DNA from: Candidatus Latescibacterota bacterium
GTDB taxonomy: Bacteria > Latescibacterota > UBA2968 > UBA8231
Length of the DNA stretch: 64,000 nucleotides
Direction: 5' to 3'
Assembly: GCA_965223905.1 (NCBI GenBank)
Contig: CBDCXV010000010.1
Coordinates: 320,001-384,000 of the forward strand
The notes beneath the pieces were generated by a model that was not told the DNA's origin, made no database searches, and saw nothing but the letters and a program-made list of their open reading frames with translations. Both the position numbers and the translations under genes were made by a program. This document shows positions 26,111 through 60,698 of this stretch, one piece after another; within the stretch, counting starts at the first letter, position 1; each line of letters starts with the position of its first letter.

Positions 26111-26275
26111 GTCCAAAAAGATCCAGCAAAGATTTCCAGGCGATATTTGCACAATGGTCGATGTGAGACAGCGTGGGTAAGAGGTGATATGATGGGGTCT
26201 ATCCGGGTTTTTCAACGCCGAAACGTAAGTACGGAAAGTACCTGAGCCCTTGCTGTCCATCTGAGTACATGACAA

Positions 26276-33812: not shown

Positions 33813-33820
33813 CGAAAAAA

Positions 33821-34812: not shown

Positions 34813-35029
34813 GGGGCCAGATCGATTACACTAGCTCGCCCGAGGTGGTATCGAGCGACTTCGTCGGCAATGAGAGAAGCGGCATCGTCGACTCGGGGGC
34901 GACCATTACCCAGGGCAAGCGCTGCGTGCTGTACGTGTGGTACCCGACAACGAGTACGGCTACAGCGCCCAGGTGATCCGCATCCTGCAGCACATATCCG
35001 GTCTCGAACTGCCCTATTTCCCCAAGTAA
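34813..35029 (+). pseudogene. gap: C-terminal fragment of glyceraldehyde-3-phosphate dehydrogenase
   Basis: IDYTSSPEVVSSDFVG...LYVWY / DNEYGYSAQV (WYDNE.GYS signature, with a small frameshift). Confidence 0.75.
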
Positions 35030-35052
35030 TCCAATAGCTAGGACAGCTCTCC

Positions 35053-36206: not shown

Positions 36207-36236
36207 GAAGCTCTGGCGAAAGCGGTTAGTGCATGA

Positions 36237-37307: not shown

Positions 37308-37451
37308 ACGCCTCCAACCTTCATGCTCGATAGCATCTATCAGTTCTCTAAGAGGGCGGACAGGGTACTTGCCTCGGGACGAGTACCGAGCTTTTCGCTA
37401 GTCGTCTGCCGGGGCCCGCGTGGAATACCGTGGCGTCCAAAGGTGCTCTAA

Positions 37452-38612
37452 TCAGTAGTCCCGCAGGGCGCCGTCGGGTCCAATCACCGGCGACCGGGTA
37501 TAGGGCACAGGCGGATAGTGCGGGAACGCTTCGTCGTTCAGTTCAATTCCAATGCCGGGAGTCTGCGGCACAATCAGGAAACCGCCCTCGCGTCGCAGTG
37601 GCATCTCGACCAGATCCCGTTTCGGGGCATCGTACTCGTCCCGCGGGTACTCCTGGATGGCGACGTTGTGGATGGCGGCGTCGAGTTGCACGCACGCCGC
37701 GGTCAGGACGCAACTCAGAGGGTTGTGCGGGGCGACTCCCACGTAGCTTGCTTCGGCAAGCGCCGCGATCTTTTTGCAATTCGTGACTCCACCGGCGAGC
37801 GACAGGTCCGGCCGGATGTACGAGGCCCCCTTGTGGGCCAGCAACTCGCGGAACTGGTAGGTGGTGTAGAGCCGCTCGCCCATGGCCACGGGCACCGGCA
37901 TATTTGCCGCGATATGGCCCCACGCGTCCATGTTCTCGGGCTCGATGGGATCCTCGAAAAAAAACAGGCCATAGGGCTCAAGGGCCTTGGCCACCTCGAT
38001 GGCCTCCGGCGGCGTGAGGCGGTTGACCACGTCGACCATGAGATCGATCTCGTCACCCACGGCGTCGCGGACCGCCTGTAGGGTAGCCGCGGCGTGCTTA
38101 GCCATGCCGCGGAACGACAGTTGTTCTAGGCTTGTGCCCTCGCCGGACGCAAAGGCCCCGAACGGATAGAGGCGCAGGGCTGTGTAGCCGGCCTCGACCA
38201 TGCTCCGGGCGTCTGCGGCCAACTCCGCCGGGGTATCGCCCTGCAGATGGGAGTACACGCGCACGCGCTCCCGCGTAGGACCGCCTAGCAGCGAATGGAC
38301 GGGTAGCTCGGCTACCTTGCCCTTGATGTCCCATAGCGCGATGTCGATTGCACCGATCGCGGCCATGGTGTCTGCGCCGCCGCGAAACACGCAGCGGCGG
38401 AACATGTGCTGCCAGTTGCGCTCAATGTGGAGGGGATCCTTGCCGATCAGGTACTCGGCGCAGTAATCCACCGCCGCAATGGGCGCAAACGACGTGCCGC
38501 TGGTGCCGCTTGCGGGGTGCAACTCGCCGACCCCCGCTATGCCCTCGTCAGTGTGCACCCGCACGTAGATAAAGCGGCTGGCCCGCAGGGTCTCGATCTT
38601 CGTGACTTTCAT
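37452..38612 (-). CDS. Mandelate racemase/galactonate dehydratase family enzyme
   Basis: AIDIALWDIKGK, FEDP, GERL, PHNP and PGIGIE motifs. Confidence 0.9.
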   Translation of the reverse strand: MKVTKIETLRASRFIYVRVHTDEGIAGVGELHPASGTSGTSFAPIAAVDYCAEYLIGKDPLHIERNWQHMFRRCVFRGGADTMAAIGAIDIALWDIKGKVAELPVHSLLGGPTRERVRVYSHLQGDTPAELAADARSMVEAGYTALRLYPFGAFASGEGTSLEQLSFRGMAKHAAATLQAVRDAVGDEIDLMVDVVNRLTPPEAIEVAKALEPYGLFFFEDPIEPENMDAWGHIAANMPVPVAMGERLYTTYQFRELLAHKGASYIRPDLSLAGGVTNCKKIAALAEASYVGVAPHNPLSCVLTAACVQLDAAIHNVAIQEYPRDEYDAPKRDLVEMPLRREGGFLIVPQTPGIGIELNDEAFPHYPPVPYTRSPVIGPDGALRDY

Positions 38613-38642
38613 ATCCGTTCTACCTATCTGCCTTCCTAAAAA

Positions 38643-38780
38643 TTAGCTCGCCTCGCGTCCCCGCAGCGCCCCACTCCCCACCATCGCGATCTCCAACGCC
38701 CTCAGCCCATCGCGGTGATCAACGGCAAAGGGTGCTCCAGCACGGCACTGGTCGATATAGTGGGCCACCTCGGCCTTGAA
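38643..38780 (-). pseudogene. C-terminal fragment of a Gfo/Idh/MocA gene cut by an oriIS junction
   Basis: FKAEVAHYIDQC...DGLRALEIA begins exactly at the oriIS end. Confidence 0.55.
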
Positions 38781-40470
38781 GTATAGGTAAAATGAGGCAC
38801 CTTTTTTGGACTCTCGGTCAAGGCGCTGAGCGTACCGCAAGGGTCTGGCAACTCCCCGGAGGATCGTTTGCCAGTCCTTCGACCGAGCTCGCAGTACAGT
38901 TTGGTTGCCTGTCGGCCCGTATCCGGATCAATTCGGGGCCTGAGGGGCCGTTGAGGGCACACCCCGCCGTACGCCCGGCGACGGCGACGGGTCGAGAAGG
39001 CAGGTCAGGCGGCGAACTCGAAAAGCGGCTCAGGCGGGGCCCTCGGCGGGGGCATCCCCGGCAGCCCTACTCCCTCCAGATAGGTCCGGATCGAGGCCGG
39101 ATCGGTCAGGGCGGCGATGATTCTCAGGCCACCGCCGCATGCCGCGCATTCGCTGAGGTCGGAGGAAAACACCCGCGCCAGCAGGGTCGCCCAGCGCAGC
39201 CGATGGGAGCAGGACGCAGCGCTCGCCGAGCCGTCCTCCGCCGACGGCTCGGCACCCGGTTGGGCCGGCACGATGCGCTCGCGGGCCCGGGCCCGGGGCG
39301 CCAGGACCCCGTGGTAGCGTAGGAGATGAAACCGGGGCGGGGGGAACCAGAGCCGCCCGCTTCTCCAGCAGTTCCATCGGAGAGAGCAGGAGAGGGCGGG
39401 TCCCATCCGACCACGGCGTTTTGAGCGCGAAGGAAAGATGGTCGGCATCGAGAACGCGCAGACGCCCCCCCGCCAGGGCCGGCCGGGCCACGTAGCGGCA
39501 CAAGCGTTCGAGCCCGCGCCGGTCAGGGCCTGCGATCCGCGTTGCCGCATGCAGGGAAAATCCGCGCGAAGCAAAGCACAAGGACGCCGTACGCACCCCG
39601 GTGGCCGCATCTTTCAGGACCCGGCGCAGGCGTTGGCCGGCGCGTGCCCCGGTGGCGGTGAGCCCTCGCACCGAAGCCGCGGTGAGAGCCGCCAGCACGG
39701 GCTCCTCGTCGGTGAACAGATCGGCGGCGGTGTCGTCGAGCAGGCCGCGTTTCGTGCACAAGCGCATGATGCGGCGCGCACTCGTCTCCACGATCTGCTG
39801 CACGGCTTGGTCGGACAACGGCGGGGCGGGAACGAAAACCGGAGCGTCCTCCCCATCGACGTAGACCCCGTCGAGCATGAGCACGTGCACGTGGGGATTG
39901 AGGTTCAGGGAGGAACCGAACCGCTGGACGAAGGTCACCGAGCCCCACCGCGCGCGGTCATGGCCCATGGCCTGCGCCTGACGTCGATACCAGCGGCCCA
40001 CCACGCGCAGAAACACCGCCAGTACGGCCGAGACCCACTCGCCGTCGTAGGCGAGGCGGTAGCGAATCTCGTACGGAAAGCTGAGCACCCACTGGCGCAC
40101 CGGCACCCGGGGCAGCACGTCGTCGACCAGGCGCGCCGCCGTATCGGCCATGCGCCGGCCGCAGCACGAGGGGCAGCACCCCCGCTTCTTGCAGGAAAAG
40201 GCTAACGGCCCGGCTCTTCCCGCAGTCCTCACAACGGGCGCGCACGAACCCGTAGGCCAGAATGCCGCATTCGAGGTAGGCCCGCAGCTCTTTGTCGACA
40301 TGGAGGGGCAGTCGGTGCTCGGCCGTTCCGGCTTGCTGGAGAAAGGTTTCCAGATGCCCGGCGAGGACCTGGTAGAGGGGCTCCTTTTCCGGTTCGCGGC
40401 GACGGTACTCGGGTGGGCGGACAGGTGTGACCGGCATGGTGCCGGCCACACAGCAATGGGCGGACCACCC
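38781..40470 (-). mobile_element. ISCR/IS91-like element 2 (longest copy)
   Basis: oriIS end plus the whole transposase coding sequence. Foreign DNA begins about 20-30 bp upstream of the start, and no terIS is recognised. Confidence 0.9.
39005..40449 (-). CDS. ISCR-type rolling-circle HUH transposase, two frameshifts (~40200, ~39345)
   Basis: Zinc-binding CGILAYGF..CEDC..SCKKRGCCPSC, HUH motif NPHVHVL, single-Tyr RLCRY motif and RYHGVLAP. Confidence 0.88.
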
Positions 40471-40471
40471 G

Positions 40472-41216
40472 TGCTCGCGTCCGCTTTGAGTCGGACAAGG
40501 GCTCGGTCACCTACTTCGACGCCTGGTTCGACGACAACCCCACCGCCAGGATGAAGCTCGGCCACGTAAAAAAGGCCGACATCGTCATCGCCAGTCACGG
40601 CCACGGCGACCACATCGGCGACTCCTATGAAATCTGCAAGCGCACCAAGGCCAAGTTCGTCGGCAACTACGAGCGCTGCGTCGTCGCTGAGGAGGTGCAC
40701 GGGCTCAAGATGGGCTCGCGCGCGCTGTCGATGAACCCCGGCGGCACGGTCAAGGTGAAAGACGCCGAAATCACGATGGTGCAGTGCCACCACTCGCAGT
40801 CGCTGTCGACCCACGTGATCGGGGCCGAGTTGCCCGCCGGCCTGCTGTTCCACCCCGACAGCGCCGTCAATGGATTTGTCATCTCCTACAACAACGGCAT
40901 CACCATTTACGACACCGCCGATACCTGCCTCTTCAGCGACATGCAGCTGATCGGCCAGATGCATGGGCCGCAAGTGATGGTCATGCCGGTGGGCGGACAG
41001 TATACGATGGGCATTCGCGAGGCGGCGAGGGCGGCGAGTCTTGTCCGCCCCGATGTCGCCATTCCCTGCCACTACGGGCCGATAATGGGGCAGCCGGCAG
41101 ATATTGGCGAGTTGAAGAAGGCGGTGAAGTTTCTCTCTCCCAATACCGAGGTGGTTGAGCTGAAGGTGGGGCAGACGTTGACCTATACGGCGAGTCGCTA
41201 CAAGGTAGGGCGCTAA
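40472..41216 (+). CDS. UPF0173-like metallo-beta-lactamase-fold hydrolase, N-terminus apparently clipped by the ISCR junction
   Basis: SHGHGDHIGD, ADTCLFSDM and IPCHY motifs. The frame extends upstream of 40551 (VRFESDKGSVTYFDAWF) to the junction. Confidence 0.8.
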
Positions 41217-44715: not shown

Positions 44716-44898
44716 ATGAACGTCAGACCTATACCTTCCCGCCTGACCCTACCGCTGCTAACTGCGGCTCTCGCGACCATCTACTATGGGTCGGCGCGAC
44801 TCGGCCTGTTGCTGGCATTTGAGAACACGAACGCGTCTCCGGTGTGGCCGCCCTCGGGCATCGCATTCGCAACCCTTCTGCTCTTCGGATATCGAAAA
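44716..44898 (+). pseudogene. MASE1-domain gene truncated by an oriIS junction
   Basis: YYGSARLGL...ASPVWPPSGIAFATLLLFGYR ends at the oriIS. Confidence 0.75.
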
Positions 44899-45867
44899 GT
44901 ATAGGTAAAATGAGGCACCTTTTTTGGACTCTCGGTCAAAGGCGGACAGCGCACCGCCAGGGTCAGGCAGCTCCCGGAGGATCGTTTGCCAATCCTTCGA
45001 CCGAGCTCGCAGTCCGGTCTGGTTGCCTGTAGGCCCGTATCCGCATCAATTCGGGGCCTGAGGGACCGTTGAGGGCACACCCGTCGCCGTACGCCCGGCG
45101 ACGGCGACGGGTCGAGAAGGCAGGTCAGGCGGCGAACTCGAACAGCGGCTCAGGCGGGGCCCTCGGCGGGGGCATCGCCGGCAGCCCTACCCCCTCCAGA
45201 CAGGTCCGGATCGAAGCCGGATCGGTCCGGGCGGCGATGATTCTCAGGCGACCGCCACAGGCCGCGCATTCGCTGAGGTCGGAGGAAAACACCCGCGCCA
45301 GCAGGGTCGCCCACCGCAGCCGATGGCCGCAGGACGCAGCGCTCGCCGAGCCGTCCGCCGCCGCCGACGGCTCGGCAACCGGCTGGGCCGGCACGATGCG
45401 CTCGCGGGCCCGGGCCCAGGGCGCCAGGACCCCGTGGTAGCGCAGGAGATGAAACCGGGGCGGGGGAACCAGAGCCGCCCGCTTCTCCAGCAGTTCCATC
45501 GGAGAGAGCAGAAGAGGGCGGGTCCCATCCGACCACGGCGTTTTGAGCGCGAAGGAAAGATGGTCGGCATCGAGAATGCGCAGACGCCCCCCCGCCAGGG
45601 CCCGGCCGGGCCACGTAGCGGCACAAGCGTTCGAGCCCGCGCCGGTCAGGGCCTGCGATCCGCGTTGCCGCAGGCAGGGAAAAGCCGCGCGAAGCAAAGC
45701 ACAAGGGCGCCGTACGCACCCCGGTGGCCGGATCTTTCAGGACCCGGCGCAGGCGTTGGCCGGCGCCTGCCCCGGTGGCGGTGAGCCCTCGCACCGAAGC
45801 CGCGGTGAGAGCCGCCAGCACCGGCTCCTCGTCGGCGAGCGGATCGGCTGCGGTGTCGTCGAGCAGG
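44899..45867 (-). mobile_element. ISCR/IS91-like remnant 3: oriIS + 3' ~half of transposase
   Basis: Near-identical to element 2 from LLDDTAAD to FEFAA*. Confidence 0.9.
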
Positions 45868-46526
45868 GCACCCACATAGACTATGGGATGCGTCCCCTGG
45901 CTCAATTTAATGTTTTCCCGCGGATTAAATACGAGACTGGTGGTTAGATCGGGCATACTTTCCGTTATGGTCGTGCCCCCTCCTCCTACACCAGGAGGTA
46001 TTTCAAATGTCATTACGTAATCATCGTAATATGGCAAATGCGCCCCATGCAATAGATATTCCACGCCTAGTACTTCTATATCGTCAATATTGTCATGGAG
46101 ATGCCTCGTATTGACAATTACATGAATTCTCTGCCAGTCGCCCTCATGTCTGTTCCACCAGTGATTGTAGGGATAGAAGTAGAGATATTGAATTACAGTG
46201 ATGTCTCCCAACATATCGTGATTGCTGATATCGTATACATACACGTAGGCTGTATTCGGGAAGTTATCGCCCGCGTGAGGTCCGTCGCCAAAGTACGTGC
46301 CATTCCATCCGGGGGTTATGAGGTAATCTGGTCCATCCGGAAAAGGATTCGGGACCTTTTTCCCTTCTGGTTTCACACCGGGATAATCAAAGTAAGGAAC
46401 TACTTTGTAAAAGCCATTTTTAAAACCAGGGGGAGCACCGATGTATTCGAAGGGAGAGATCTCGGCGAAGGAGTTCCTGGCGAGAATGTCGAATACGGTT
46501 AACGCTATCGACCTCGTTTTGATCAT
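45868..46526 (-). pseudogene. Low-GC fragment of a Vps62/NPP1-like protein fused in frame to the transposase remnant
   Basis: IQYLYFYPYN...HEGDWQ...HG...THPIVYVG motif pattern. Confidence 0.5.
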
Positions 46527-46767
46527 GATCCGTGAAACGCTTAAACAAAAAGAAGGAGGTGAACGAGAAGGCTGTCAGCGGCTGGATGAGAAAGCCGGTA
46601 CGGGCTTACCAGAAGATCAAGGTGTGTGGGTGTCAGCTCAGCGAAGTCGCAATCGGCCGCGCGACGTCGCTACGGCAGCCCTGGCGAAATGTTCGTTCAG
46701 GATGTCTGGAAGGCTCTCGATAATGGCGAGATCATCGACGCGAAAAGTCGGATCGCGTTGCGGTGGC

Positions 46768-48924
46768 TCAGGAATCGGAACTCCCAATGCTGACCGGCTG
46801 TGTCGTCGGCCGAAGGGCCGTTGGAGTCATCTCCTTGTCCCAGCTGGCCAGCTGGGACATCATCTCGAACAGGTTTATCAGCGCCGCGAGCGATTCCACG
46901 CTCGCAGTCTCTTCCTTCTTCGACAACGGCACGGTGAAATCCCTGCACACCCTGATGAACTTCAGTTTTTTCGCTCTGGCGAACTCGCCATCTTTCTTAG
47001 AGTCTCCCACGAACACCACCTCTTCGGGTTTCAGCCCGTGGTCTTGTAGGATGGCGGTGATCTGTCTCCCTTTGTCAAACCCGGCTTTATAGCCAAACAC
47101 TCCATCTATCTGGTCCTGGAGTCCCGTCCGTGCCGCGTACTCCTCGACCAGCTCGACCCGAGTGCTGCTGCACACAAATGTGTTGAGCCCTTTTTGTTTC
47201 AAGTATGACAGGGTTGGGATGGCATCGCGGAACAGAGGCAGAGCAAAAATCCCATTACTCTTGCGCGCCTCGAACTGCTCCGCCACCTCTGCGTTCCTTT
47301 TGTGCTTTGGGAACATCTCCTCCACTTGGTCCGCAAACGGAAGCCCCGAGGTCTCCAAATACTGACTTCGGACTCTGGCCGCTGTGATGGAGTAATTCCG
47401 CGTGATCAATTCGGTAGCCAACTCGGTGAGGAAGGGCATCGTGTCGGCCAGAGTCCCGTCAAAGTCGAACACGACTGCCTTGACTCCCATGCCTGTAGCT
47501 GGGGTCACGGGTTGATAAGCTGAATCCTGGCGTTGGGACACGCCGTGACCCTTCGTCTGTCTCCACGAAAACAGCATCCGCCAGATAACGATGAGGTTCG
47601 TGTGCACCGCTGTGAGCGCCACTCCCAGCATCGCAAAGCCGGGGTGGAACCACGTCGCCAGCCCACAGCAGAAGAGCAAGAAGAGACGCACATCACGTCC
47701 TCGCCCTGCTGCGATCCATTTTCCCGTGTACTTGTGATTCAAGTTGACGACAGACTTAGCCGATGTATAGCTCACCATCAAATGGCCGACAATCGCCATC
47801 ACTGCGATGGCGAAGATCGCCACTGGATTCCACACGAGCCCGATGACCTCCCGGCCTCCGAGCTCCGACAGGGCATAGAAGGTGAGCCCGGCAAACATCA
47901 GACTATCTGCGTACCGATCGAGGACAGCGTCAAAGTAGTCCCCCATTTTGGATTGCAGATGCTTGAGCCGCGCAACTTCCCCATCACACCCGTCCAGAAT
48001 ACTGGAAAGCTGCATCACCACGGCGCCAGCGATCGCCTCGCCAGCGAAGAAGCACGCACTGCTCAAGGCGGCGACGACAAAGCTCACCACCGAAACTTGA
48101 TTAGGCGTAATAGCCGGGCAGAGCTTTAGAAGCAGAGGTGTGAGCAATCGGCTCGAAAGGGGCCGGTTTATGTAACGGGAAACCCAACCGTCAGCTGCTT
48201 TGGTCGACAGGTTCGACAACAGCTCGTGCTCGGCCTTGAAGAGCGCGGCCTCGTCGTCGACGTCCATCCAGAACCGCCCCTGTATGTCGAATGCCGCTAC
48301 CTTACCGCGATCAGCCAGGAGCTGGACAGCCCCCGACAGAGAGGTGTCGTCGCAGGCACGAATACAGGTCTTGATCGCCTTGAAAAGAGCGGGGGAGCAC
48401 AGGAAAATGCCTGCGTCGTACGCGTTGTACCGAGAAATTTGTTTGCCGATTTTGAGGATTCTTCCACCGTTGGCGAGTACGTTCGTCACATCATCCGGAT
48501 CCGCTCGGCCATTCGTGGCCAGGTCGTAATCTACTGCCAAGCGTACGTCGGCATTTCCCAGCGGCTCGCAGAGGAGTCTTTTGAGGATCTCCTCATCGAA
48601 GACGTGGTCTGCCATGAGCAAGACGAAATCGCCTTCCAGCAGATGGGCAGCCTTTAAAACCGACAGACCGTTTCCCTCTTGCCAGTCTTCGTTGATGACC
48701 GGCGTGATCCGCACGTTCATCTTCTGGCTCAGCTCGTCCAGAAAGGACCGAACCATCTCTCCTTGGTAACCCGTTACCACGTAGAGATCGGTCAGTCCAC
48801 TTCTGACTGCCGTACGAATTGTCCGTTCGACGAGCGGCATGCCCAGCAGGGGCACGAGCGGCTTTGAGGGCCCTCTGCGGGATAACCGGCTCCCCCTGCC
48901 GGCGGCGATAATGAGGCATTTCAT
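46768..48924 (-). CDS. Three-domain IPCT-like cytidylyltransferase / CDP-alcohol phosphatidyltransferase (DIPPS-like) / HAD phosphatase
   Basis: IIAAGRGSRL..SKP, LMADH, DGCDGEVAR...G..FD..LDR, FDFDGTL and FVGDS..D motifs. Confidence 0.82.
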   Translation of the reverse strand: MKCLIIAAGRGSRLSRRGPSKPLVPLLGMPLVERTIRTAVRSGLTDLYVVTGYQGEMVRSFLDELSQKMNVRITPVINEDWQEGNGLSVLKAAHLLEGDFVLLMADHVFDEEILKRLLCEPLGNADVRLAVDYDLATNGRADPDDVTNVLANGGRILKIGKQISRYNAYDAGIFLCSPALFKAIKTCIRACDDTSLSGAVQLLADRGKVAAFDIQGRFWMDVDDEAALFKAEHELLSNLSTKAADGWVSRYINRPLSSRLLTPLLLKLCPAITPNQVSVVSFVVAALSSACFFAGEAIAGAVVMQLSSILDGCDGEVARLKHLQSKMGDYFDAVLDRYADSLMFAGLTFYALSELGGREVIGLVWNPVAIFAIAVMAIVGHLMVSYTSAKSVVNLNHKYTGKWIAAGRGRDVRLFLLFCCGLATWFHPGFAMLGVALTAVHTNLIVIWRMLFSWRQTKGHGVSQRQDSAYQPVTPATGMGVKAVVFDFDGTLADTMPFLTELATELITRNYSITAARVRSQYLETSGLPFADQVEEMFPKHKRNAEVAEQFEARKSNGIFALPLFRDAIPTLSYLKQKGLNTFVCSSTRVELVEEYAARTGLQDQIDGVFGYKAGFDKGRQITAILQDHGLKPEEVVFVGDSKKDGEFARAKKLKFIRVCRDFTVPLSKKEETASVESLAALINLFEMMSQLASWDKEMTPTALRPTTQPVSIGSSDS

Positions 48925-49577
48925 GTGTGGGACGAACTCCTCGCGTGCGGTCATTTTTCCTTTGACAGTTGAGGACAGAAGGGGCAATCTTGGGGGCGGA
49001 GACATGAAAGGGCGCAAAAACCCCCTTCACTAGCCTCCACCCGGTCGTTAGTCCGCGCCCCTCCCCGGTCAGCGACTAACGGCCGTTTTGTTTAGATTTC
49101 CGCGACGACCGAGACCACGGAGGCTCTCCTCGATCAAGAGCCCTCTCTCGGCGACGGCTGATCGCCCGAATAAAAACAAAATCCGCACGGGCCTTCCTCG
49201 GCAGCGCGGGCGTTTGGGTAGGCTAGGTGGTCTCGCTTATGACCGCGACCGGTCCTCTCGGTCGCTTAGCGAAGGCCCCCAGATATCAGATCCGGCAGCT
49301 ATTAGCCGGAACGCCTCGTTTCGAATACGCACCCTCTGGTGACGAAAACCGCCACAACCTGAGCCGAAGAAGCCACAGCTGTCTCCTCCGTTATCTGTCA
49401 CCTGGATAGCGGAGGAGGTAGCGTACTCTGTATCGGCTTTTGAGTTTACCAGACACTGCGCCCAGTCGAACGCTGGATGCCGTTGAAGGTTGAAATTAGA
49501 AAACACGCTCGGAGGCGTCAAGGGGGTCGTTTCGGTCCTGGGCTGAGACGCCAATCCCGCCCGTCAATATCAACATA

Positions 49578-49685
49578 ACTATCGAATATTATCTAACGTC
49601 AATTCGGATGGGTCTCCCCCTTCTTATCATGACTATCGAATATTATCTAACTTATCATGCGTCAATTCGGATGGGTCTCCCCCTT
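49578..49685. repeat. Rearranged direct repeat A-B-c-A-c-B
   Basis: A=ACTATCGAATATTATCTAAC, B=GTCAATTCGGATGGGTCTCCCCCTT and c=CTTATCATG each occur twice. Confidence 0.85.
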
Positions 49686-49972
49686 GGTGCGACCGCAAGC
49701 TCAGCCGCCTAGCTGTTCGGGTTCGTCGCGTCCGTGAGCACGGAGCCTCTCGAAGCTGATGTCGCTCAGCAACTTTCAGAGGCTGACGAAATCTTCTGAG
49801 TGGCAGCTTGCAGGAACGATTCGACCTGAAGTTCAACGTCTATGATCCTTAAGGAATGGTCGTCGTTGGTGTTCACATCTTCCTCTCGTCCGTACGCCAA
49901 ATCACCCCGACCAGGAAGTACGGCAGGATCACAGCCTGAAACACTGGGCCGTCACGCCATCCCTGGATCCGT

Positions 49973-51040
49973 ATGAATAAGCCCAATGCAGTTGTCGTGG
50001 GTTACGGCTTCGCCGGCCGCTGCTTTCACGCCTACCTGGTTGGTATCACAGCAGATCTCAACCTGTACGGCGTCGTCTCCGGCCGTCCCGAGGCTCGCGA
50101 AGAAGTCCGCTCTCAGCTTGGCGTGAAAGCGTTCGAGCGTTTTGAAGAGGCTCTCGCCGATTCAAATGTCGACCTGGTTGTCCTCGCCACGCCCAACGAT
50201 ATCCACGCTCCGCAGGCCATAGCCGCCATGGAGGCTGGCAAGCACGTGGTCACGGACAAACCGATGTGTCTGAATCTACGAGAGGCAGACGATATGATCG
50301 CCGCCAGCCGCAGGACCGGACGTCTGCTCAGCATCTTTCAGAACCGGCGCTGGGATGGGGACTACCTCACTGTCCGGAAAGTGCTCGAGGAAGGCTTGAT
50401 CGGTGACCCGTACTACATCGAGATGGCATGGCAGCAGTACGGCCCTCCCCGGACCTGGCGCGGAGAAAGGCGGCGCGGCGGCGGCAAATTCGTGGATCTG
50501 GGAGCGCACATGATCGATCAAGCCCTCCAACTGATTCGCGCGTCCCTCGATCGGGTCTACGCCCGCTTTTTCTCGGAGGGGTGGCCGACCGAGGTGGAGG
50601 ACCACGCCCACTGTATTCTGAGTTTCGACAGCGGCGTCGATGTGCACGTTGTGACTTCGTCACTCACCACACACTCAAAGCCGAGATGGTACATATTGGG
50701 GACAAAGGGCGGACTCGTGAAGACGGGTCTGGATCCCCAGGAGAAGGCCATGGTCGCTGGAGATATCGACGCGGCCCGTGAGGATCCGGCCCACTATCCA
50801 CGGCTGTGGACGGCAGTCGCCGGGCAGCCGGCTGAGACCGTGATCGAACCCGTACCCGGACGGTGGCGGTCCTATTACGAGAATATCGCTGCAGCCATCC
50901 GAGGTACAGAGGAGCTGGCAGTCACCCCGGAAAGTGTCCGTGCCGTCATGGCTGTGTTGGAGGCGGCGCGCACATCAGTTGAGCGCGGTGAAGCAGTTTC
51001 GTTGGACGAAACAGCAGGCAGTAGCAGATCTGGCGCATAG
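49973..51040 (+). CDS. Gfo/Idh/MocA oxidoreductase (YdgJ/IolW-like)
   Basis: VVGYGFAG, GKHVVTDKP, FQNRRWDGDY and DLGAHMIDQA motifs. Confidence 0.9.
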   Translation: MNKPNAVVVGYGFAGRCFHAYLVGITADLNLYGVVSGRPEAREEVRSQLGVKAFERFEEALADSNVDLVVLATPNDIHAPQAIAAMEAGKHVVTDKPMCLNLREADDMIAASRRTGRLLSIFQNRRWDGDYLTVRKVLEEGLIGDPYYIEMAWQQYGPPRTWRGERRRGGGKFVDLGAHMIDQALQLIRASLDRVYARFFSEGWPTEVEDHAHCILSFDSGVDVHVVTSSLTTHSKPRWYILGTKGGLVKTGLDPQEKAMVAGDIDAAREDPAHYPRLWTAVAGQPAETVIEPVPGRWRSYYENIAAAIRGTEELAVTPESVRAVMAVLEAARTSVERGEAVSLDETAGSSRSGA

Positions 51041-51065
51041 CGCCACATTCCCGCATCACCATCAA

Positions 51066-51652
51066 GTATAGGTAAAATGAGGCACCTTTTTTGGACTCTC
51101 GGTCAAGGCGGACAGCGCACCGCCAGGGTCAGGCAGCTCCCGGAGGATCGTTTGCCAGTCCTTCGACCGAGCTCGCAGTACAGTTTGGTTGCCTGTCGGC
51201 CCGTATCCGGATCAATTCGGGGCCTGAGGGACCGTTGAGGGCACACCCCGCCGTACGCCCGGCGACGGCCACGGGTCGAGAAGGCAGGTCAGGCGGCGAA
51301 CTCGAACAGCGGCTCAGGCGGGGCCCTCGGCGGGGGCATCGCCGGCAGCCCTACCCCCTCCAGACAGGTCCGGATCGAAGCCGGATCGGTCCGGGCGGCG
51401 AGGATTCTCAGGCGACCGCCACAGGCCGCACATTCGCTGAGGTCGGAGGAAAACACCCGCGCCAGCAGGGTCGCCCACCGCAGCCGATGGCCGCAGGACG
51501 CAGGGCTCGCCGAGCCGTCCGCCGCCGACGGCTCGGCAACCGGCTTGGCCGGCACGATGCGCTCGCGGGCCCGGGGCCGGGGCGCCAGGACCCCGTGGTA
51601 GCGCAGGAGATGAAACCGGGGCGGGGGAACCAGAGCCGCCCGCTTCTCCAGC
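51066..51652 (-). mobile_element. ISCR/IS91-like remnant 4
   Basis: oriIS plus transposase from LEKRAALV to FEFAA*. Confidence 0.9.
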
Positions 51653-52044
51653 GTCTCGATGCGGATGTACGCCATCCCCTCCCCCTTCAGATGCTCGATG
51701 GCCGTCTCCACCAGTTTCAGCCCGATCCCCTTTCTCTGATGCCGCGGTAGCACAGCGTAGTTTGGAATCCCGCCTATTTTGGCTTCTTCGTCTACGCGGG
51801 TAGTGATGTAGCCCACCACCTCGCCGTCGACCTCAGCGACGAACATTCCGTCAGCATGCGCATCCACGTCCGCGTCGATATGCCGCTTCTTGCGCCAGCG
51901 CCAGCCGTGACCGGCGATCGGGCCGAACTCCTTCTCGATGTTCTGATCGATGGAGACACCGTCGAAGCAGATGGCGGTGATTTCTTTGACGATGTCGAGA
52001 TCGGCGTCGGTGCACTTCCTGTCGGTGCACTTCCTTATGTTCAT
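51289..52044 (-). CDS. GNAT acetyltransferase fused in frame to the ISCR transposase C-terminus
   Basis: FVAEVDGEVVGY and AVLPRHQRKGIG, then IETLE|KRAALVPPPRF. Confidence 0.75.
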   Translation of the reverse strand: MNIRKCTDRKCTDADLDIVKEITAICFDGVSIDQNIEKEFGPIAGHGWRWRKKRHIDADVDAHADGMFVAEVDGEVVGYITTRVDEEAKIGGIPNYAVLPRHQRKGIGLKLVETAIEHLKGEGMAYIRIETLEKRAALVPPPRFHLLRYHGVLAPRPRARERIVPAKPVAEPSAADGSASPASCGHRLRWATLLARVFSSDLSECAACGGRLRILAARTDPASIRTCLEGVGLPAMPPPRAPPEPLFEFAA

Positions 52045-52062
52045 GTCGTTTTCCGCTCGCGC

Positions 52063-52417
52063 CTACTGCCTCTGCACCAGTTCGATCAGCAACCCGTCCG
52101 GATCCCTCGCGCATACGACGCCGCCGTTTTCGTACATGAACGGGTCCGACACGAATTCCACACCTCGTCCCTGCAGTTGCGCCACCGTATCTTTCAGATC
52201 GGCCACGAAGAAAGTGATCCAGCGAACGCCGGCAGAGAAATCCCCGGAGCCCGAGGCCGGCGGCGACTCGATCTGCATCAGCTTGAGCAGGGTGTCACCC
52301 GCTTGGAGCCGCACCTGGCGGAAACCGCTGGGCGCCAGCCCCACCTGTGTGGCCAGTTCCGCGGAGATCTCCAGCTCCACGGCGATCTCGAATCCAAGCT
52401 GATCGCGATAAAACTCC
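52063..52417 (-). pseudogene. 5'-truncated copy of the VOC/glyoxalase gene
   Basis: Identical to 55211-55565 but lacking the first ~22 codons. Confidence 0.85.
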
Positions 52418-52924
52418 GCGTCCTGAGAAGAAGGGACGATCGACAACGGCCCTGAGCTTGGATACCTTTCGCCGGCGCTACCTGCGCGTGCCCTCGCGTA
52501 GTACGTTCCACGGTCGGGCGGTCGGAGTGACCATCGCGCAAGCGATCGCCGCCCGCTGGTACCGTCTCTGGAGATTCCTTGCCACGCTCAAACCCGTCGA
52601 CATGATTACCGCATGACGCTTGGCCCGGGTCGGTCCATGTGATCGGCTCGCAACGCAGCGTCATCGAGGGCGCGTACAATTTCAAGAAAGGTCAGTAGGG
52701 TCAGGAGAGGACGGGTTTGCCTAAGAAGGAGACTATAGCAGACACTCTGCCTATGTGCTTATGCGAAATCGATCTTCGTAGCGGCGAGCTTCGCTTCATG
52801 GCACGTTGAATGAATAACAAGGGCTCAGGGGACAACCAACCCCCCGCAGAGTCCACCTTAACCCCGCTACCAGCTGTCCAAAGGATGGGGACCACCTCGT
52901 AGCAAACAGACAAGGGAGGCAATT

Positions 52925-53746
52925 GTGCAGATCAAATTCACTTTAAAGTTCACGGGTGCGGTATGGAGTGCAATTTTACTCCTACCAGTTGCGTGCACCA
53001 ACTCGAACGCTCCTGGCTCTCCGGTTTCCGACGGCAATGACGCTGATGAAAACCTCTCTCGGGTGTCCATTGAGAACCATGAAGTTGTGTTCAGCCTCGA
53101 CCGGGAGGATCTCACCATCGGGTCTGCGGTTTTTAGTGTGATTTGTTTTCAGAAAGCTCAAAATCGCGCGAATGAACAGACATTTACAGATTGCGATATC
53201 TTCAGAGTTAACGGTGTAGATCAACCAAGATTGTCTCACCCTATGCAACCAATCGACTTGAATACATTTCTGCTTACCGCTAAAGACATTGAATTCTCCT
53301 TGGACGGTGAAGCCTATCTCTGCTTGACAGTCAAACCCTGGTTTAATGAGATACCAAATGAGTCTGATTGGCATTACTATGCTGAGGGCAACGACCGCTA
53401 TTCCATGCTTTCATATTGTAGCGTGGATGAGATTCCAGATTGGGGCCGGGACAATGTCCGGGTCACGCAAAATCGGGTTCAATCCCTGGAGGAGTTCAAG
53501 CGAAGACTCTCGGCGCCAATTGAAATCTACACATCTGATAGAGCGCTACCGCCAAGGTTTGGGTCAACAGAATTCAAAGGAGGAGATTTGCGCAATGATG
53601 AGCTCAGGCAATGCGGGCACGCGATCCCCATGCCAGCGGGTAGAATTCCAGAGAATCCATCATCAGAGCCAATCAGAATTCCGGTTGGTATCTACGCGGG
53701 ATGGCTTTTTGATGACAATACAACCTACCAGTGCCTGGAGGAGTAG
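52925..53746 (+). CDS. Hypothetical lipoprotein, low GC
   Basis: GGGAGG RBS and an LLLPVAC lipobox-like signal. Confidence 0.6.
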   Translation: MQIKFTLKFTGAVWSAILLLPVACTNSNAPGSPVSDGNDADENLSRVSIENHEVVFSLDREDLTIGSAVFSVICFQKAQNRANEQTFTDCDIFRVNGVDQPRLSHPMQPIDLNTFLLTAKDIEFSLDGEAYLCLTVKPWFNEIPNESDWHYYAEGNDRYSMLSYCSVDEIPDWGRDNVRVTQNRVQSLEEFKRRLSAPIEIYTSDRALPPRFGSTEFKGGDLRNDELRQCGHAIPMPAGRIPENPSSEPIRIPVGIYAGWLFDDNTTYQCLEE

Positions 53747-54213
53747 GGGACCGGGAGTGCTTGATCGACGGGTGAGCGCGTACTCAAATGGCTGCGAGAC
53801 TTCTCAGAATATACGTAAGTTCCACTTTCGCTACCACCCAGGTCCCGCTGCGGCGACTTCGCCGCCTTGGCCTCCGGAAACCTGGCTGCGCCAGGTTCCC
53901 AAACCGTGAGACGTTATGCGGAATTTTCAGGATAGAGACGAGGTGCATTGGAGTTGAGCCTAATTGACAAACTGCCAAGCCCCGAATGGGTCAGGAAGGA
54001 ATATGGGATTCTCTGGGATGGACAGTACTGCGACATGACCGGCAGTATCGCCCATGTTGTCAGGATCGAGCCAAAGAATGTTGGGGGATCCTATGTGGTT
54101 CGAATCTCCGATCCCAAGCGGATCTGCAGCGGCGGCTGTCGCTAGTTCACCGGTTCCAGACTCACCTGACCACTAGAGGTGTGCGGACCGTTCTGCCGCT
54201 GAAGGCCCTTAAA

Positions 54214-54800
54214 GTATAGGTAAAATGAGGCACCTTTTTTGGACTCTCGGTCAAGGCGGACAGCGCACCGCCAGGGTCAGGCAGCTCCCGGAGGATCGTT
54301 TGCCAGTCCTTCGACCGAGCTCGCAGTACAGTTTGGTTGCCTGTCGGCCCGTATCCGGATCAATTCGGGGCCTGAGGGACCGTTGAGGGCACACCCCGCC
54401 GTACGCCCGGCGACGGCCACGGGTCGAGAAGGCAGGTCAGGCGGCGAACTCGAACAGCGGCTCAGGCGGGGCCCTCGGCGGGGGCATCGCCGGCAGCCCT
54501 ACCCCCTCCAGACAGGTCCGGATCGAAGCCGGATCGGTCCGGGCGGCGAGGATTCTCAGGCGACCGCCACAGGCCGCACATTCGCTGAGGTCGGAGGAAA
54601 ACACCCGCGCCAGCAGGGTCGCCCACCGCAGCCGATGGCCGCAGGACGCAGGGCTCGCCGAGCCGTCCGCCGCCGACGGCTCGGCAACCGGCTTGGCCGG
54701 CACGATGCGCTCGCGGGCCCGGGGCCGGGGCGCCAGGACCCCGTGGTAGCGCAGGAGATGAAACCGGGGCGGGGGAACCAGAGCCGCCCGCTTCTCCAGC
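54214..54800 (-). mobile_element. ISCR/IS91-like remnant 5
   Basis: Same sequence as remnant 4 but with a different oriIS flank. Confidence 0.9.
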
Positions 54801-55192
54801 GTCTCGATGCGGATGTACGCCATCCCCTCCCCCTTCAGATGCTCGATGGCCGTCTCCACCAGTTTCAGCCCGATCCCCTTTCTCTGATGCCGCGGTAGCA
54901 CAGCGTAGTTTGGAATCCCGCCTATTTTGGCTTCTTCGTCTACGCGGGTAGTGATGTAGCCCACCACCTCGCCGTCGACCTCAGCGACGAACATTCCGTC
55001 AGCATGCGCATCCACGTCCGCGTCGATATGCCGCTTCTTGCGCCAGCGCCAGCCGTGACCGGCGATCGGGCCGAACTCCTTCTCGATGTTCTGATCGATG
55101 GAGACACCGTCGAAGCAGATGGCGGTGATTTCTTTGACGATGTCGAGATCGGCGTCGGTGCACTTCCTGTCGGTGCACTTCCTTATGTTCAT
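54437..55192 (-). CDS. GNAT acetyltransferase-ISCR C-terminus fusion (second copy)
   Basis: Identical translation to 51289-52044. Confidence 0.75.
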   Translation of the reverse strand: MNIRKCTDRKCTDADLDIVKEITAICFDGVSIDQNIEKEFGPIAGHGWRWRKKRHIDADVDAHADGMFVAEVDGEVVGYITTRVDEEAKIGGIPNYAVLPRHQRKGIGLKLVETAIEHLKGEGMAYIRIETLEKRAALVPPPRFHLLRYHGVLAPRPRARERIVPAKPVAEPSAADGSASPASCGHRLRWATLLARVFSSDLSECAACGGRLRILAARTDPASIRTCLEGVGLPAMPPPRAPPEPLFEFAA

Positions 55193-55210
55193 GTCGTTTT
55201 CCGCTCGCGC

Positions 55211-55630
55211 CTACTGCCTCTGCACCAGTTCGATCAGCAACCCGTCCGGATCCCTCGCGCATACGACGCCGCCGTTTTCGTACATGAACGGGTCCGACAC
55301 GAATTCCACACCTCGTCCCTGCAGTTGCGCCACCGTATCTTTCAGATCGGCCACGAAGAAAGTGATCCAGCGAACGCCGGCAGAGAAATCCCCGGAGCCC
55401 GAGGCCGGCGGCGACTCGATCTGCATCAGCTTGAGCAGGGTGTCACCCGCTTGGAGCCGCACCTGGCGGAAACCGCTGGGCGCCAGCCCCACCTGTGTGG
55501 CCAGTTCCGCGGAGATCTCCAGCTCCACGGCGATCTCGAATCCAAGCTGATCGCGATAAAACTCCAGCGATTTGTCGAAGTCGCTGCAGACGATGGCGAT
55601 GTCGACGACGGTGTGAGTTTGTTTGATCAT
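55211..55630 (-). CDS. VOC/glyoxalase family protein
   Basis: IAIVCSDFDKSLEFYRDQLGF and RDPDGLLIELV motifs. Confidence 0.88.
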   Translation of the reverse strand: MIKQTHTVVDIAIVCSDFDKSLEFYRDQLGFEIAVELEISAELATQVGLAPSGFRQVRLQAGDTLLKLMQIESPPASGSGDFSAGVRWITFFVADLKDTVAQLQGRGVEFVSDPFMYENGGVVCARDPDGLLIELVQRQ

Positions 55631-55685
55631 GTTCGCCTACCTCCTCTTTGGTCGAACGAGCCCCGAGGCGCTGGCGCAGCCCGGC

Positions 55686-56675
55686 TCATCGCATCCGGGA
55701 GTCGGACATCCACATGTCAGGGTTCCGGCCGATGGCGTCTTTGACAGGTTGTGTCAGGCGCTCTAACTCGGCCATCGTAGCTGCGTCGAGCTCCAACGAA
55801 AGCGTCGGCAGGTTGGTCTCCAGTTCGTCCGCATCCCGGGCGCCGACCAGGAAGGATGTCACTCCCCTCTGCTGTCTCACCCAGGCGAGTGCCACGCTCG
55901 CCATCGGGGCGCCAACCTGGCGGCTCAACTCGCGAATGCCGGAGATGGCGCTGAAAACAGCTGCCTCGCATCCCGGCTCGCCGTGTCCGGCCTGCGCGCG
56001 GGAGCTCGCATACCATCGCGTCCGGGCCAGCCCCTCCGGAACCTCGTCAGCCGTCGCATACCTTCCCGTCAGCAGCCCCTGCGCCAGCGGACTGTAGCAT
56101 ATCAACCCGATCGCGCTCTCGCGGCAGAGCGGCAGGATTTCAAACTCGATTGCCCGCCACAGAAGGCTGAAGGGCAGCTGGTTCGTCTCCGGCCGGCCAA
56201 CCTCGATCAGATCGGACAGGTCGCCGACGGCGAAGTTCGCGACACCGAGCGCGCGCACCTTGCCCTCCCTCACCAGATCCTCGAGCGCGCGCCAGGACGT
56301 GTCGATCGGGATGTCGTGATTTGGCCAGTGGATCTGGTACAGGTCGATGTAGTCCGTATTCAGATTTTTGAGGCTCTCCTCGCAGGCGGACGCGATCCCT
56401 TCCGCAGTCAGGTGGTTCGGGGCTACCTTGGTTGCGATCACCGCCTGCTGGCGCCTCCCTTCCAGACCACGTGCGAGAACACGCTCGGACTCACCCTTCT
56501 CGTATGCCTCTGCCGTGTCGAAGAGGTTGATGCCCGCGTCCAGTGCGGCGCGCACCGTCGCAATCGATTGATCGTCGTCCTGATCGCCCCAGATCGAGCC
56601 GCCCGCGAAGGGCCAGCAACCCAGACCCATCACCGAGACTTCGATACCCAAATTGCCCAGCCTCCGGTATTCCAC
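55686..56675 (-). CDS. Aldo/keto reductase
   Basis: GINLFDTAEAY, DYIDLYQIHWP and YSPLAQGLLTG motifs. Confidence 0.92.
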   Translation of the reverse strand: MEYRRLGNLGIEVSVMGLGCWPFAGGSIWGDQDDDQSIATVRAALDAGINLFDTAEAYEKGESERVLARGLEGRRQQAVIATKVAPNHLTAEGIASACEESLKNLNTDYIDLYQIHWPNHDIPIDTSWRALEDLVREGKVRALGVANFAVGDLSDLIEVGRPETNQLPFSLLWRAIEFEILPLCRESAIGLICYSPLAQGLLTGRYATADEVPEGLARTRWYASSRAQAGHGEPGCEAAVFSAISGIRELSRQVGAPMASVALAWVRQQRGVTSFLVGARDADELETNLPTLSLELDAATMAELERLTQPVKDAIGRNPDMWMSDSRMR

Positions 56676-56692
56676 TTCACTCCTTCATGTGA

Positions 56693-57270
56693 TCAAAGCT
56701 CGTTGAGGCCTGTCAGGCTGTCAGTCCTGAGTGCCACAGCCTGTGAAAACGCCCCGACCTCAGCAGAAGATCTAAGACGCACAAATCGTATGTGGTTCCA
56801 AGACGATTCAGTAGTATATGCCAGCATACTGCGACGCGTGCGCCGGTGCTGCGTGACAATCCACCATAGCAGCGAATCCTCCTTGCGCCAGACCATGAGC
56901 TGGGGCCAGAAACGCTCGTAGTTTGTCCCCCAAAGCGGCTCCTGCGACCGCCAGCGACGCCACGAATCGAATCAGCATTCGCCAGATGAGTGGAACCATG
57001 GGCAAATCCAGCCAGCGATCGTCTCCAGGCGTGGCCAGAAAATGCGTTGTGAAAATTGCATGTAGGAGCCGGCCACAACCCATCCATCACCACGGGTTGC
57101 TTCGCCTATTCTCCGTTCGAGTTCCTCGGGGTTTGTGTCGCTCAGAGCAACCCAGCCAGGTTGCCAATTGAGCGCGTCCAACTCCACCAAGGGGACGCCG
57201 AGGGCGGCCGACAGCTGCGCTCCCAAGGTGCTTTTTCCAGCGCAGCTATTCCCAACTATTACGGGGAGCG
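56693..57270 (-). pseudogene. Adenylate-kinase-like/FlaR P-loop protein, frameshifted and 5'-truncated
   Basis: IVGNSCAGKSTL, ELDALNWQPGW, WLDLP and FVRLRS are found over three frames. Confidence 0.7.
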
Positions 57271-57378
57271 GTAAATAGGTGACATAGATGGCACCATTTC
57301 CCCTTCGAGAGTGTTGTAAACTTTCAATTACTCCCCGTAGTATGTGAATCCTGTGGCCGGTCCGTAAGCCAGTGTGCG

Positions 57379-57819
57379 TCACTCGAACTGCCGTTCGCTC
57401 TGGCGGACCGCCTTGCCTTTGCCTCGAATGATATCCCGGCGCTTCCAGGTCTGGACGGCGCGACAGATCCAGTCGCTCTCACCGAGGAGTCGCCGTAGCT
57501 GGTCTTTCGTGAACCACTCATGCCGATCGCGGGCCAGTTGGTCAGGAGGCAATGTTTCATCGGAGTAGCCGTACAGTCGGCAGACACCGTCTTTCGTTTC
57601 AACATCCTCGATGTAGGACATCCACGGGATGTCCAGTCCGAGCTGTGTCTTTGTATAGAGCCTTATCGCCGCATCGATATTCCCGAGCCGTGACTCCTCG
57701 CTGGCCAAGCCCCGCGACCGGGCAAGCGCCTCCTGCGAAACTGTGCCATCGTCGGCTGCGGATACAGTTGGGCAGTCAGCTGACCTGCTCTGCCAGTGTC
57801 GAGGCACCGCAGAAGTCAT
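57379..57819 (-). CDS. Hypothetical protein or gene fragment
   Basis: 146-aa ORF with no recognised family. Confidence 0.35.
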   Translation of the reverse strand: MTSAVPRHWQSRSADCPTVSAADDGTVSQEALARSRGLASEESRLGNIDAAIRLYTKTQLGLDIPWMSYIEDVETKDGVCRLYGYSDETLPPDQLARDRHEWFTKDQLRRLLGESDWICRAVQTWKRRDIIRGKGKAVRQSERQFE

Positions 57820-59924: not shown

Positions 59925-60108
59925 ACCCAGTAGTCCCTCTCTCGAGTGTCGCCAGGAAACCTCGACGACCTACTCAATTCCAATGGTCACAAGATGAAAC
60001 GGTAGCGGAGGAATGGAAAGAAAAGATGGATATGGAGATGCGGATGGGGATGGAGAAATGGAGATGGGCACCAGTGGAGACGTGGGAGGAGTACTACTCG
60101 ATCTCCAA

Positions 60109-60698
60109 GTATAGGTGAAATGAGGCACCCTTTTGGACTCTCGGTCAAGGCGGACAGCGCACCGCAAGGGTCCGGCAACTCCCCTGAGTGTGGATCGTTT
60201 GCCAGTCCTTCGACCGAGCTCGCAGTACAGTTTGGTTGCCTGTCGGCCCGTATCCGCATCAATCCGGGGCCTGAGGGACCGTTGAGGGCACCCCCCGCCG
60301 TACGCCCGGCGACGGCGACGGGTCGAGAAGGCAGGGCCGGCGGCGAACTCGAACAGCGGCTCAGGCGGGGCCCTCGGCGGGGGCATCGCCGGCAGCCCTA
60401 CCCCCTCCAGACAGGTCCGGATCGAGGCCGGATCGGTCCGGGCGGCGATGATTCTCAGGCGACCGCCACAGGCCGCGCATTCGCTGAGGTCGGAGGAAAA
60501 CACCCGCGCCAGCAGGGTCGCCCAGCGCAGCCGATGGCCGCAGGACGCAGCGCTCGCCGAGCCGTCCGCCGCCGCCGACGGCTCGGCAACCGGCTTGGCC
60601 GGCACGATGCGCTCGCGGGCCCGGGCCCGGGGCGCCAGGACCCCGTGGTAGCGCAGGAGATGAAACCGGGGCGGGGGAACCAGAGCCGCCAGCTTCTC
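60109..60698 (-). mobile_element. ISCR/IS91-like remnant 6
   Basis: oriIS GTATAGGTGAAATGAGGCACC plus transposase from EKLAALV onward. Confidence 0.9.

Follow-up and report, generated by a model that had tools for sequence, protein, structure and literature searches.

How can the same segment come to stand twice, a few kilobases apart, with both copies beginning exactly at the origin end of a transposable element? The question is raised by a stretch of 64,000 nucleotides from a Candidatus Latescibacterota bacterium (GTDB lineage Bacteria; Latescibacterota; UBA2968; UBA8231; assembly GCA_965223905.1), referred to here as the window, which comprises positions 320,001–384,000 of contig CBDCXV010000010.1 (C10:320001-384000) in a genome of 7.9 Mb and 11 contigs (G000). 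A preliminary description of the window had read the pair as a snapshot of one-ended transposition by a non-autonomous unit that carried cargo genes into a new target. We find that the repeat is real and inherited, a segmental copy anchored at an origin (oriIS) and lying in a head-to-tail array of decayed ISCR elements, which belong to the IS91 superfamily with HUH transposases. As a rearrangement within a large array of such elements the locus is ordinary, though instructive, and it is no clean snapshot of transposition.

Diagonal comparison and self-BLAST demonstrate that positions 51064–52417 (copy 1, or D) and 54212–55565 (copy 2, or E) agree over 1354 bp with 0 mismatches and 0 gaps at an offset of 3148 bp, so the identity asserted in the preliminary description holds in full. 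Both edges are sharp, and identity is lost at once on either side; sporadic base matches at 51059–51062 are attributed to chance. A chance origin of the repeat itself is dismissed because the match is exact over 1354 bp. A BLAST search of the genome returned 41 matches, of which exactly two are full-length, both at 100%. The remaining 39 cover the first ~590 bp or part thereof at 71–97% identity, bar one exact match of 37 bp, and the other ISCR copies of the window are mutually just 88–97% identical in the self-BLAST.

The left edge of the repeat is the end of a mobile element. Six ISCR copies in the window, starting at 33819, 38779, 44897, 51064, 54212 and 60107, all open with AAGTATAGGT and all lie in the same orientation, yet their left flanks, six in all, are unrelated to one another. 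This places the start of the repeat at the true oriIS terminus of an ISCR/IS91-like element, as had been proposed for both copies. The canonical terminus is present in 42 copies, 12 in this genome and 30 loci from five relatives, and contains a CCTATAC-type motif, which we take to be that of ISCR oriIS ends. With ~40 copies or remnants, the element occurs through the genome in head-to-tail arrays. Its oriIS lies downstream of the transposase 3′ end, and it has no terminal inverted repeats, none being found when the window was scanned for repeats. As single strands, the oriIS region and the two break sites do not fold better than shuffled sequences (z 0 to −1.4), and no tRNA or Rfam features were found within 48–58 kb. 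To the left of copy 1 lies X, a GFO/IDH/MocA-type oxidoreductase gene (49973–51040, plus strand; both the N- and the C-terminal GFO_IDH_MocA domain in Pfam), with which array unit C (44897–51063) ends; the unit consists of oriIS, 966 bp of ISCR, cargo and X. The flank here ends in CATC at 51063, that of copy 2 in CTTA at 54211, and that of the next oriIS-bearing remnant, copy F (60107–60698, minus strand), in CTCC.

The order within the repeat is origin region, transposase 3′ end, a truncated GNAT acetyltransferase gene, and the C-terminal 117 codons of a VOC/glyoxalase gene. The ISCR share is 589 bp (51064–51652 in copy 1, minus strand) and is divided into 225 bp of non-coding origin region (51064–51288) and 364 bp of transposase 3′ end (51289–51652), in good agreement with the ~360 bp estimated before. 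This remnant is 94.6% identical to positions 1–591 of the long copy B, and the intact transposase of the genome aligns with it over aa 354–458 by tblastn. A fusion ORF of 251 aa (51289–52044, minus strand) joins the acetyltransferase (Pfam Acetyltransf_1, 19–102 of 116) to the C-terminal tail of the transposase (Y2_Tnp, 153–180 of 183). Compared with the full-length GNAT of G013, a genome of another genus, the gene is truncated at its 3′ side and lacks the ~30 last residues, and its in-frame fusion to the transposase tail shows 6 nt of microhomology at the joint; what had been called GNAT cargo is thus a remnant. A tandem duplication of 15 nt near the GNAT N-terminus (RKCTD twice; 52006–52020 and 55154–55168) is present in both copies and absent from G013.

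The two copies part within the VOC gene. In copy 1 the gene (52063–52417, minus strand; Pfam Glyoxalase 17–121 of 121, and translation) is truncated on its 5′ side by the break at 52417/52418 and is left without its first ~22 codons. Copy 2 continues, as previously noted, into an intact VOC gene of 139 aa (55211–55630, minus strand; Glyoxalase 5–121 of 121), inside which the repeat ends at 55565/55566, and then into an aldo-keto reductase (AKR) gene (55686–56675, minus strand; Pfam Aldo_ket_red, 231 bits). In G013, a full-length GNAT, a VOC gene with an internal deletion and AKR follow each other without ISCR. Since the sequence across 55565/55566 is contiguous there, it is judged to be natural in copy 2, and the break belongs to copy 1.

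The right end of the repeat is shared with a further place in the genome. Locus Q (C10:1604638-1602634, opposite strand, 1.2 Mb away) has a segment in common with window positions 55566–57654: 55566–57259 equals C10:1604638-1602945 at 100%, and 57341–57654 matches the adjoining stretch of Q at 99.4%. The Q segment begins at the base right after the end of the repeat and is joined there, with an ambiguity of 1 nt, to the start codon of a galactonate-dehydratase-like gene. The window has that gene as well (37452–38612, minus strand), in segment M (34383–38613), which comprises ISCR positions 810–1238, cargo and the dehydratase-like gene. This 4231-bp block is 99.93% identical to C10:1608868-1604638, and at Q its counterpart directly adjoins the equivalent of window position 55566. 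Copy D thus stops, to the base, where the Q copy starts, a result hard to obtain from two independent random breaks. The congener G002 has a similar yet different joint, in which position +208 of the dehydratase gene is joined to the equivalent of 55548. The 18-mer to the left of 55565 was encountered at 36 loci in a scan of the genome collection, and the 34 beyond G013 and G002 were assumed to be mostly chance or codon-level matches.

Q retains the native right-hand context, which also follows AKR in G013, and unit E leaves this context at 57654/57655. Unit E, which runs from oriIS to 57654, copy D, which runs from oriIS only to 55565, and the native GNAT-VOC-AKR locus form a nested series with one fixed origin end. 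Two side observations concern the same segment. A MITE-like (miniature inverted-repeat transposable element) insertion of ~82 bp at 57257–57342, with terminal inverted repeats TACGGGGAG...CTCCCCGTA and four copies in the genome that are 100% identical, lies in unit E and is absent from Q, G002 and G013; as it is found in E but not in Q, it inserted after the E/Q duplication. The AKR segment 55566–57259 is also 99.5% identical to G002:C1:6313687-6315398, and ~100% over the 1.7-kb AKR part, while neighboring shared DNA is 97.5–98.4% identical, which suggests recent exchange of this segment between lineages.

On the other side of the break, copy 1 is followed by a spacer of 1794 bp, Y (52418–54211). 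It opens with the remnant of an IS1380-family element (52418–52825, plus strand), comprising the last ~65 transposase codons (52419–52616) and the downstream end region and cut internally at 52418. The remnant is 73.8% identical to aa 322–382 of a genomic IS1380-family transposase (tblastn) and scores 173 bits against the NCBIfam IS1380 model, whose cut-off is 180; a nucleotide match in G012, at 90%, begins exactly at 52418. The 5′ part of the IS1380 gene was found neither to the left of copy 1 and unit C nor elsewhere in the window. The lower-GC part of Y (~52%) holds an ORF of 273 aa (52925–53746, plus strand) with a lipoprotein-like N-terminus (lipobox by inspection) and without a Pfam or NCBIfam match. 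The joint at 52417/52418 is abrupt. Scans of metagenomes with the 32-mer right of this joint and with the 33-mer of the ISCR/GNAT junction gave 0 matches each.

Since the repeat has no functional transposase, its transposition would need one in trans. Copy B, the longest ISCR copy of the window (38779–40483, minus strand; positions 1–1705, terIS end missing), has a transposase frame broken by two frameshifts. Its protein contains partial Zn_Tnp_IS91 and Y2_Tnp domains (Pfam), and H-x-H and RYVARP motifs were seen; its best NCBIfam match is ISCR element clade Ia with 209.2 bits against a cut-off of 925, and its IS91 score is 44.7 bits against 125. By these scores the element is a distant relative that falls outside the curated IS91 and ISCR clade Ia families. 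Four copies pass position 1705 and have common sequence to ~1770–1800, from where they diverge at differing points, leaving terIS poorly defined. One uninterrupted transposase gene was identified in the genome by tblastn (C11:524224-525663; 480 aa in a single frame), with complete Zn_Tnp_IS91 (5–89 of 90) and Y2_Tnp (1–178 of 183) domains and, in the 12 best matches, 41–42% amino acid identity at 92–94% coverage to plasmid-borne genes whose annotation is IS91 family or ISVsa3 family transposase. This gene on C11 is a candidate for the trans source. As a separate observation, copy A (33819–34812) is chimeric: a divergent origin part (88%; positions 1–550) is joined at 34380–34382 to positions 810–1238 of a Q-like copy, and the 99.93% identity of the region to Q starts exactly at that joint.

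The explanation that we put forward, with our confidence about evenly divided between it and all others, is origin-anchored rolling-circle copying with later recombination between ISCR copies. Most likely, a transposase acting in trans would nick the oriIS ahead of the remnant joined to the truncated GNAT, VOC and AKR genes, and the strand would then be peeled off or copied rightwards from oriIS. At least two products with a fixed left end could arise in this way, one of ~3.4 kb reaching 57654 (unit E) and one of 1354 nt reaching 55565 (copy D). The shorter product may have entered at, or later been recombined onto, a pre-existing oriIS junction beside X, a site that was not virgin, and the DNA between the X junction and the IS1380 interior would have been lost through recombination between ISCR copies or an origin-to-origin deletion. 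The breakpoint at Q could represent the joint left in the donor by this excision, or the entry of another unit into VOC, which would delimit 1354 nt between two origins. The repeat, its terminus, the inherited left junction, the nested set, the shared breakpoint, the truncated partners and one intact transposase gene are shown; that a transposase made the copy, that the events came in this order and that the intervening DNA was lost is inferred. Several features of the locus speak for such a copy. Seen from oriIS, the copied DNA extends towards terIS, which is the direction of rolling-circle read-through via the transposase remnant. Both novel joints are blunt, with 0 nt of microhomology at 52417/52418 and 1 nt at Q, compared with 6 nt at the older ISCR/GNAT joint. 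An intact transposase gene is present on C11, and the behavior published for IS91 and IS801 is in keeping with one-ended, origin-anchored products. A transposase-made copy accounts for the fixed left end of D and E, the side that was copied and the blunt joints, and with one more assumption it also accounts for the shared breakpoint.

A number of observations weigh against such a copy, and the left junction is the foremost. The X/oriIS junction (51063/51064) is found at the identical base in G002, where X is 98.4% identical, and is followed there by an ISCR of the unit-C type with 3.1 kb of the cargo of that unit, a stretch 97.5% identical to window 44897–49010. The junction is accordingly inherited and older than copy 1, with an oriIS standing beside X already. 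Two separate insertions at exactly this base are unlikely because the 42 flanks show no target consensus. A test for a hybrid ISCR in G002 was uninformative, as C and D each have private changes and G002 is mostly in the consensus state. Unit C itself is circularly permuted in G002 (44897–51063 versus G002:C1:6010992-6016516): X is directly followed by the unit C oriIS and cargo to 49010, and window 49011–49654 is missing. The permutation is compatible with an origin-to-origin unit in circular or tandem form. Within the missing stretch begins a 34-nt motif with two copies 63 nt apart (49589–49685), in the divergent intergenic region between a HAD-fusion gene and X.

The right flank adds to the difficulty. 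No unoccupied X/Y site with the two flanks of copy 1 contiguous was found; the left flank has its oriIS already in G002, and the right one is the 3′ part of an IS1380 gene. The inherited left junction and the missing IS1380 half call for a second step, either recombination or origin-to-origin deletion. The supposed new target in the preliminary description is not sustained by these results. Neither is the C11 gene an ideal source: its protein is only ~76% identical to the D/E remnant, and the terminal 17 nt of the C11 copy deviate from the canonical terminus. Across the 42 oriIS flanks there is no IS91-like target tetranucleotide of the CTTG or GTTC type, the commonest occurring twice, and the bias that exists is weak (purine at −1 in 32 of 42, C at −4 in 19 of 42). 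The repeat ends in CTCC, which is also the flank of copy F, and the terIS reference derives from 4 copies only. CTCC was considered as a termination signal and proves nothing, since the flanks yield no usable consensus. A circle junction was not found, the end-to-origin joint giving 0 matches in a scan of the G000 assembly only. Microhomology-mediated deletion also occurs in these arrays, as the ISCR/GNAT joint illustrates. One-ended transposition by a non-autonomous unit is therefore retained in part: the start at oriIS, the read-through side, the lack of an own transposase, the abrupt right end and the nested series speak for it, and the inherited left junction speaks against it.

Alternatively, the duplication can be produced without a transposase, a possibility that we consider serious, if clearly short of probable. 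Illegitimate joining, by end-joining or template switching, of VOC at 55565 to the IS1380 interior would generate a tandem duplication of 3148 bp, after which homologous recombination between the ISCR copy resident beside X and the newly made one would delete the intervening DNA. The boundary exactly at oriIS would then be the mere start of homology between two ISCR copies. With an oriIS already beside X, the left boundary is explained trivially, and a crossover within positions 1–206 of the ISCR part would be hidden: this stretch contains no site diagnostic of D and E, whose five private substitutions lie at 207–513. Exchange with a resident ISCR copy would thus leave a boundary that looks no different. 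The earlier argument that a boundary exact to the origin excludes ordinary recombination thereby loses its force. Direct-repeat arrays of 88–97% identity are good substrates for recombination. Two relatives, G004 and G020, have two junctions in common and differ by one whole origin-to-origin period of 3929 bp, an indel that fits plain recombination, as does the circularly permuted unit C of G002. The authors of PMC3189936 judged most natural IS801 fragments to be reorganization products. However, this route takes two steps too, the same number as the transposase-made copy, and leaves the base-exact coincidence of 55565/55566 at Q to chance. It offers no reason for D and E both starting at the origin and extending on the read-through side, and the 52417/52418 joint shows no microhomology.

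A bolder proposal we regard as unlikely. In it the oriIS remnants of these Latescibacterota chromosomes would still be mobile, and each oriIS-to-oriIS stretch would serve as a cassette: the HUH transposase would start at one origin and stop either at the one that follows or at some chance position, and the unit would be re-inserted before a resident origin. Arrays of 6–14 units of metabolic genes could be built and shuffled in this manner, as a rolling-circle counterpart of the integron, and the Q breakpoint would be the donor joint of a cut-and-paste one-ended excision. Such excision is not documented for the IS91 family in the portions of PMC13181058 or PMC3189936 considered here. Precise cut-and-paste from Q was also considered and set aside, as an extra assumption is needed: at Q the dehydratase gene is joined at its very start codon, but the gene in the window lies 166 bp from the next oriIS.

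Integration of a circle is less probable again, and we hold it to be quite improbable. A circle of 3148 bp, one origin-to-origin period consisting of the 1354 bp and Y, would have integrated by homologous recombination into a single resident X/oriIS-GNAT-VOC-AKR arrangement with the truncated GNAT. A single crossover gives exactly a direct repeat flanking Y and keeps the old X/oriIS junction, and the permuted unit C of G002 is a hint that such units exist in circular or tandem form. The process can be likened to the duplicated 3′-conserved segments around ISCR1. The 52417/52418 joint must, however, pre-exist in the donor, and the genome, with only two copies of the repeat, has none; the problem is moved elsewhere and not solved.

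The reality of the two copies was assessed on contigs only, from four public runs (X2, X3, X4 and X6). In three of the four (X2, X3 and X4), a contig of 1853 nt spans Y completely and overlaps the end of copy 1 by 30 nt and the oriIS of copy 2 by 29 nt, the overlaps being one letter below the 31-letter bridging rule. The listed repeat contig, from 54771 or 54849, stops at 55565 in the same three runs, the listed piece of X6 stops at 55222, and X3 and X6 have a contig from 55536 onward into AKR. These ends fit the assembly, and I read them as graph branch points, as expected for one sequence in two contexts. Across the four runs, the contig over the repeat is 1.1–3.4 times as deep as X or Y, and Y has 0.47–0.59 of the depth of X in three runs and 1.45 in one; contig depth is not copy number. 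That a single real copy was doubled by mis-assembly is scarcely credible: the contig over Y reaches both copies, contigs end at 55565 and start at 55536, and since 55565/55566 is a natural junction, found uninterrupted in G013, the VOC fragment must occur in both contexts.

The runs are labelled as three organisms from three studies, show a few substitutions relative to the window, and have contigs that break at the same repeat boundaries; the structure is thus inherited and no fresh event in one clone, and the term snapshot does not apply. In X3, X4 and X6, the sole contig over 55154 is without the 15-nt tandem duplication, and X3 and X6 also have T>G at 55174. Concerted evolution of the two copies by gene conversion is possible, although contigs can merge variants and slippage can drop a tandem 15-mer.

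Other mobile and repetitive DNA lies further left in the window. An insertion sequence of 1465 bp at 26194–27658, unrelated to the ISCR family, has at least 17 copies in the genome at 99.3–100% and is probably active. Another, at 32257–33812 with an ORF of 475 aa and two more copies at 99.5–99.7%, ends a few bases from the oriIS of unit A at 33819. At 31563–31806 a period of 51 nt occurs in four tandem copies inside the ORF 31271–32062.

Arrays of the same kind are found in relatives. The oriIS terminus pattern occurs 15, 2, 5, 50 and 10 times in five related genomes, and 0 times for the reversed control. Most termini are clustered on one strand, with as many as 14 in a stretch of 70 kb, and same-strand arrays of 10–14 termini with a spacing of 2–14 kb are located at G020:C1:1740471-1803787, G020:C1:3718761-3760077 and G004:C1:2488477-2546685; G020 has the 50 termini in all. 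A literature search found no publication on such arrays in Latescibacterota, which is not proof of absence.

The movement of neighboring genes by transposase-less origin remnants has long been proposed for ISCR elements, mostly from inference on resistance plasmids. If a transposase made the copy described here, it would be a natural chromosomal case of such a remnant moving neighboring genes, outside Proteobacteria and outside antibiotic resistance. The nested set, consisting of the native locus, the 3.4-kb copy, the 1.35-kb copy and the complementary breakpoint, provides concrete substrates for a mating-out assay. If the copy was not made by a transposase, the locus gives a caution: an exact origin boundary is no evidence of transposition where the site already held an origin.

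Among known systems, Helitrons share an HUH transposase, read-through past the terminator and the capture of gene fragments, as described in the portion of PMC4778049 considered here. They differ in their Rep and helicase architecture and their eukaryotic hosts, and the likeness is one by description. Closer are IS91 and IS801. According to the part of PMC13181058 considered, IS91 makes single-strand circles and inserts beside a tetranucleotide without target duplication, and without Orf121 ~50% of its events are one-ended; according to that of PMC3189936, IS801 gives rise to miniature fragments of the origin end and mobilizes adjacent DNA with transposase supplied in trans. As far as these portions describe the two elements, they resemble the one studied here in the HUH transposase with its Zn_Tnp_IS91 and Y2_Tnp domains, in a fixed origin end with a variable other end and in origin-end miniatures; a terIS end distinct from oriIS, mobilization of DNA on the terIS side and action of the transposase in trans would be further features in common. 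Unlike them, the locus shows no conserved target tetranucleotide in 42 flanks, the left junction of the copy is inherited and an empty site was not found; unlike IS91, the transposase of the element scores under the family cut-off of NCBIfam (44.7 versus 125 bits).

The ISCR2/ISVsa3-type ISCR elements of resistance plasmids likewise occur as truncated copies beside captured genes, with several copies per replicon, and they are the type to which the best family match, ISCR clade Ia, and the 41–42% amino acid identity to plasmid transposases in the 12 best matches point. In contrast to the plasmid ISCR, the element scores far under the clade cut-off of 925 bits, is chromosomal and belongs to an uncultivated environmental phylum. 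Its cargo consists of ordinary metabolism genes and not of resistance genes, and its copies are assembled in arrays with 6–14 same-strand origin ends.

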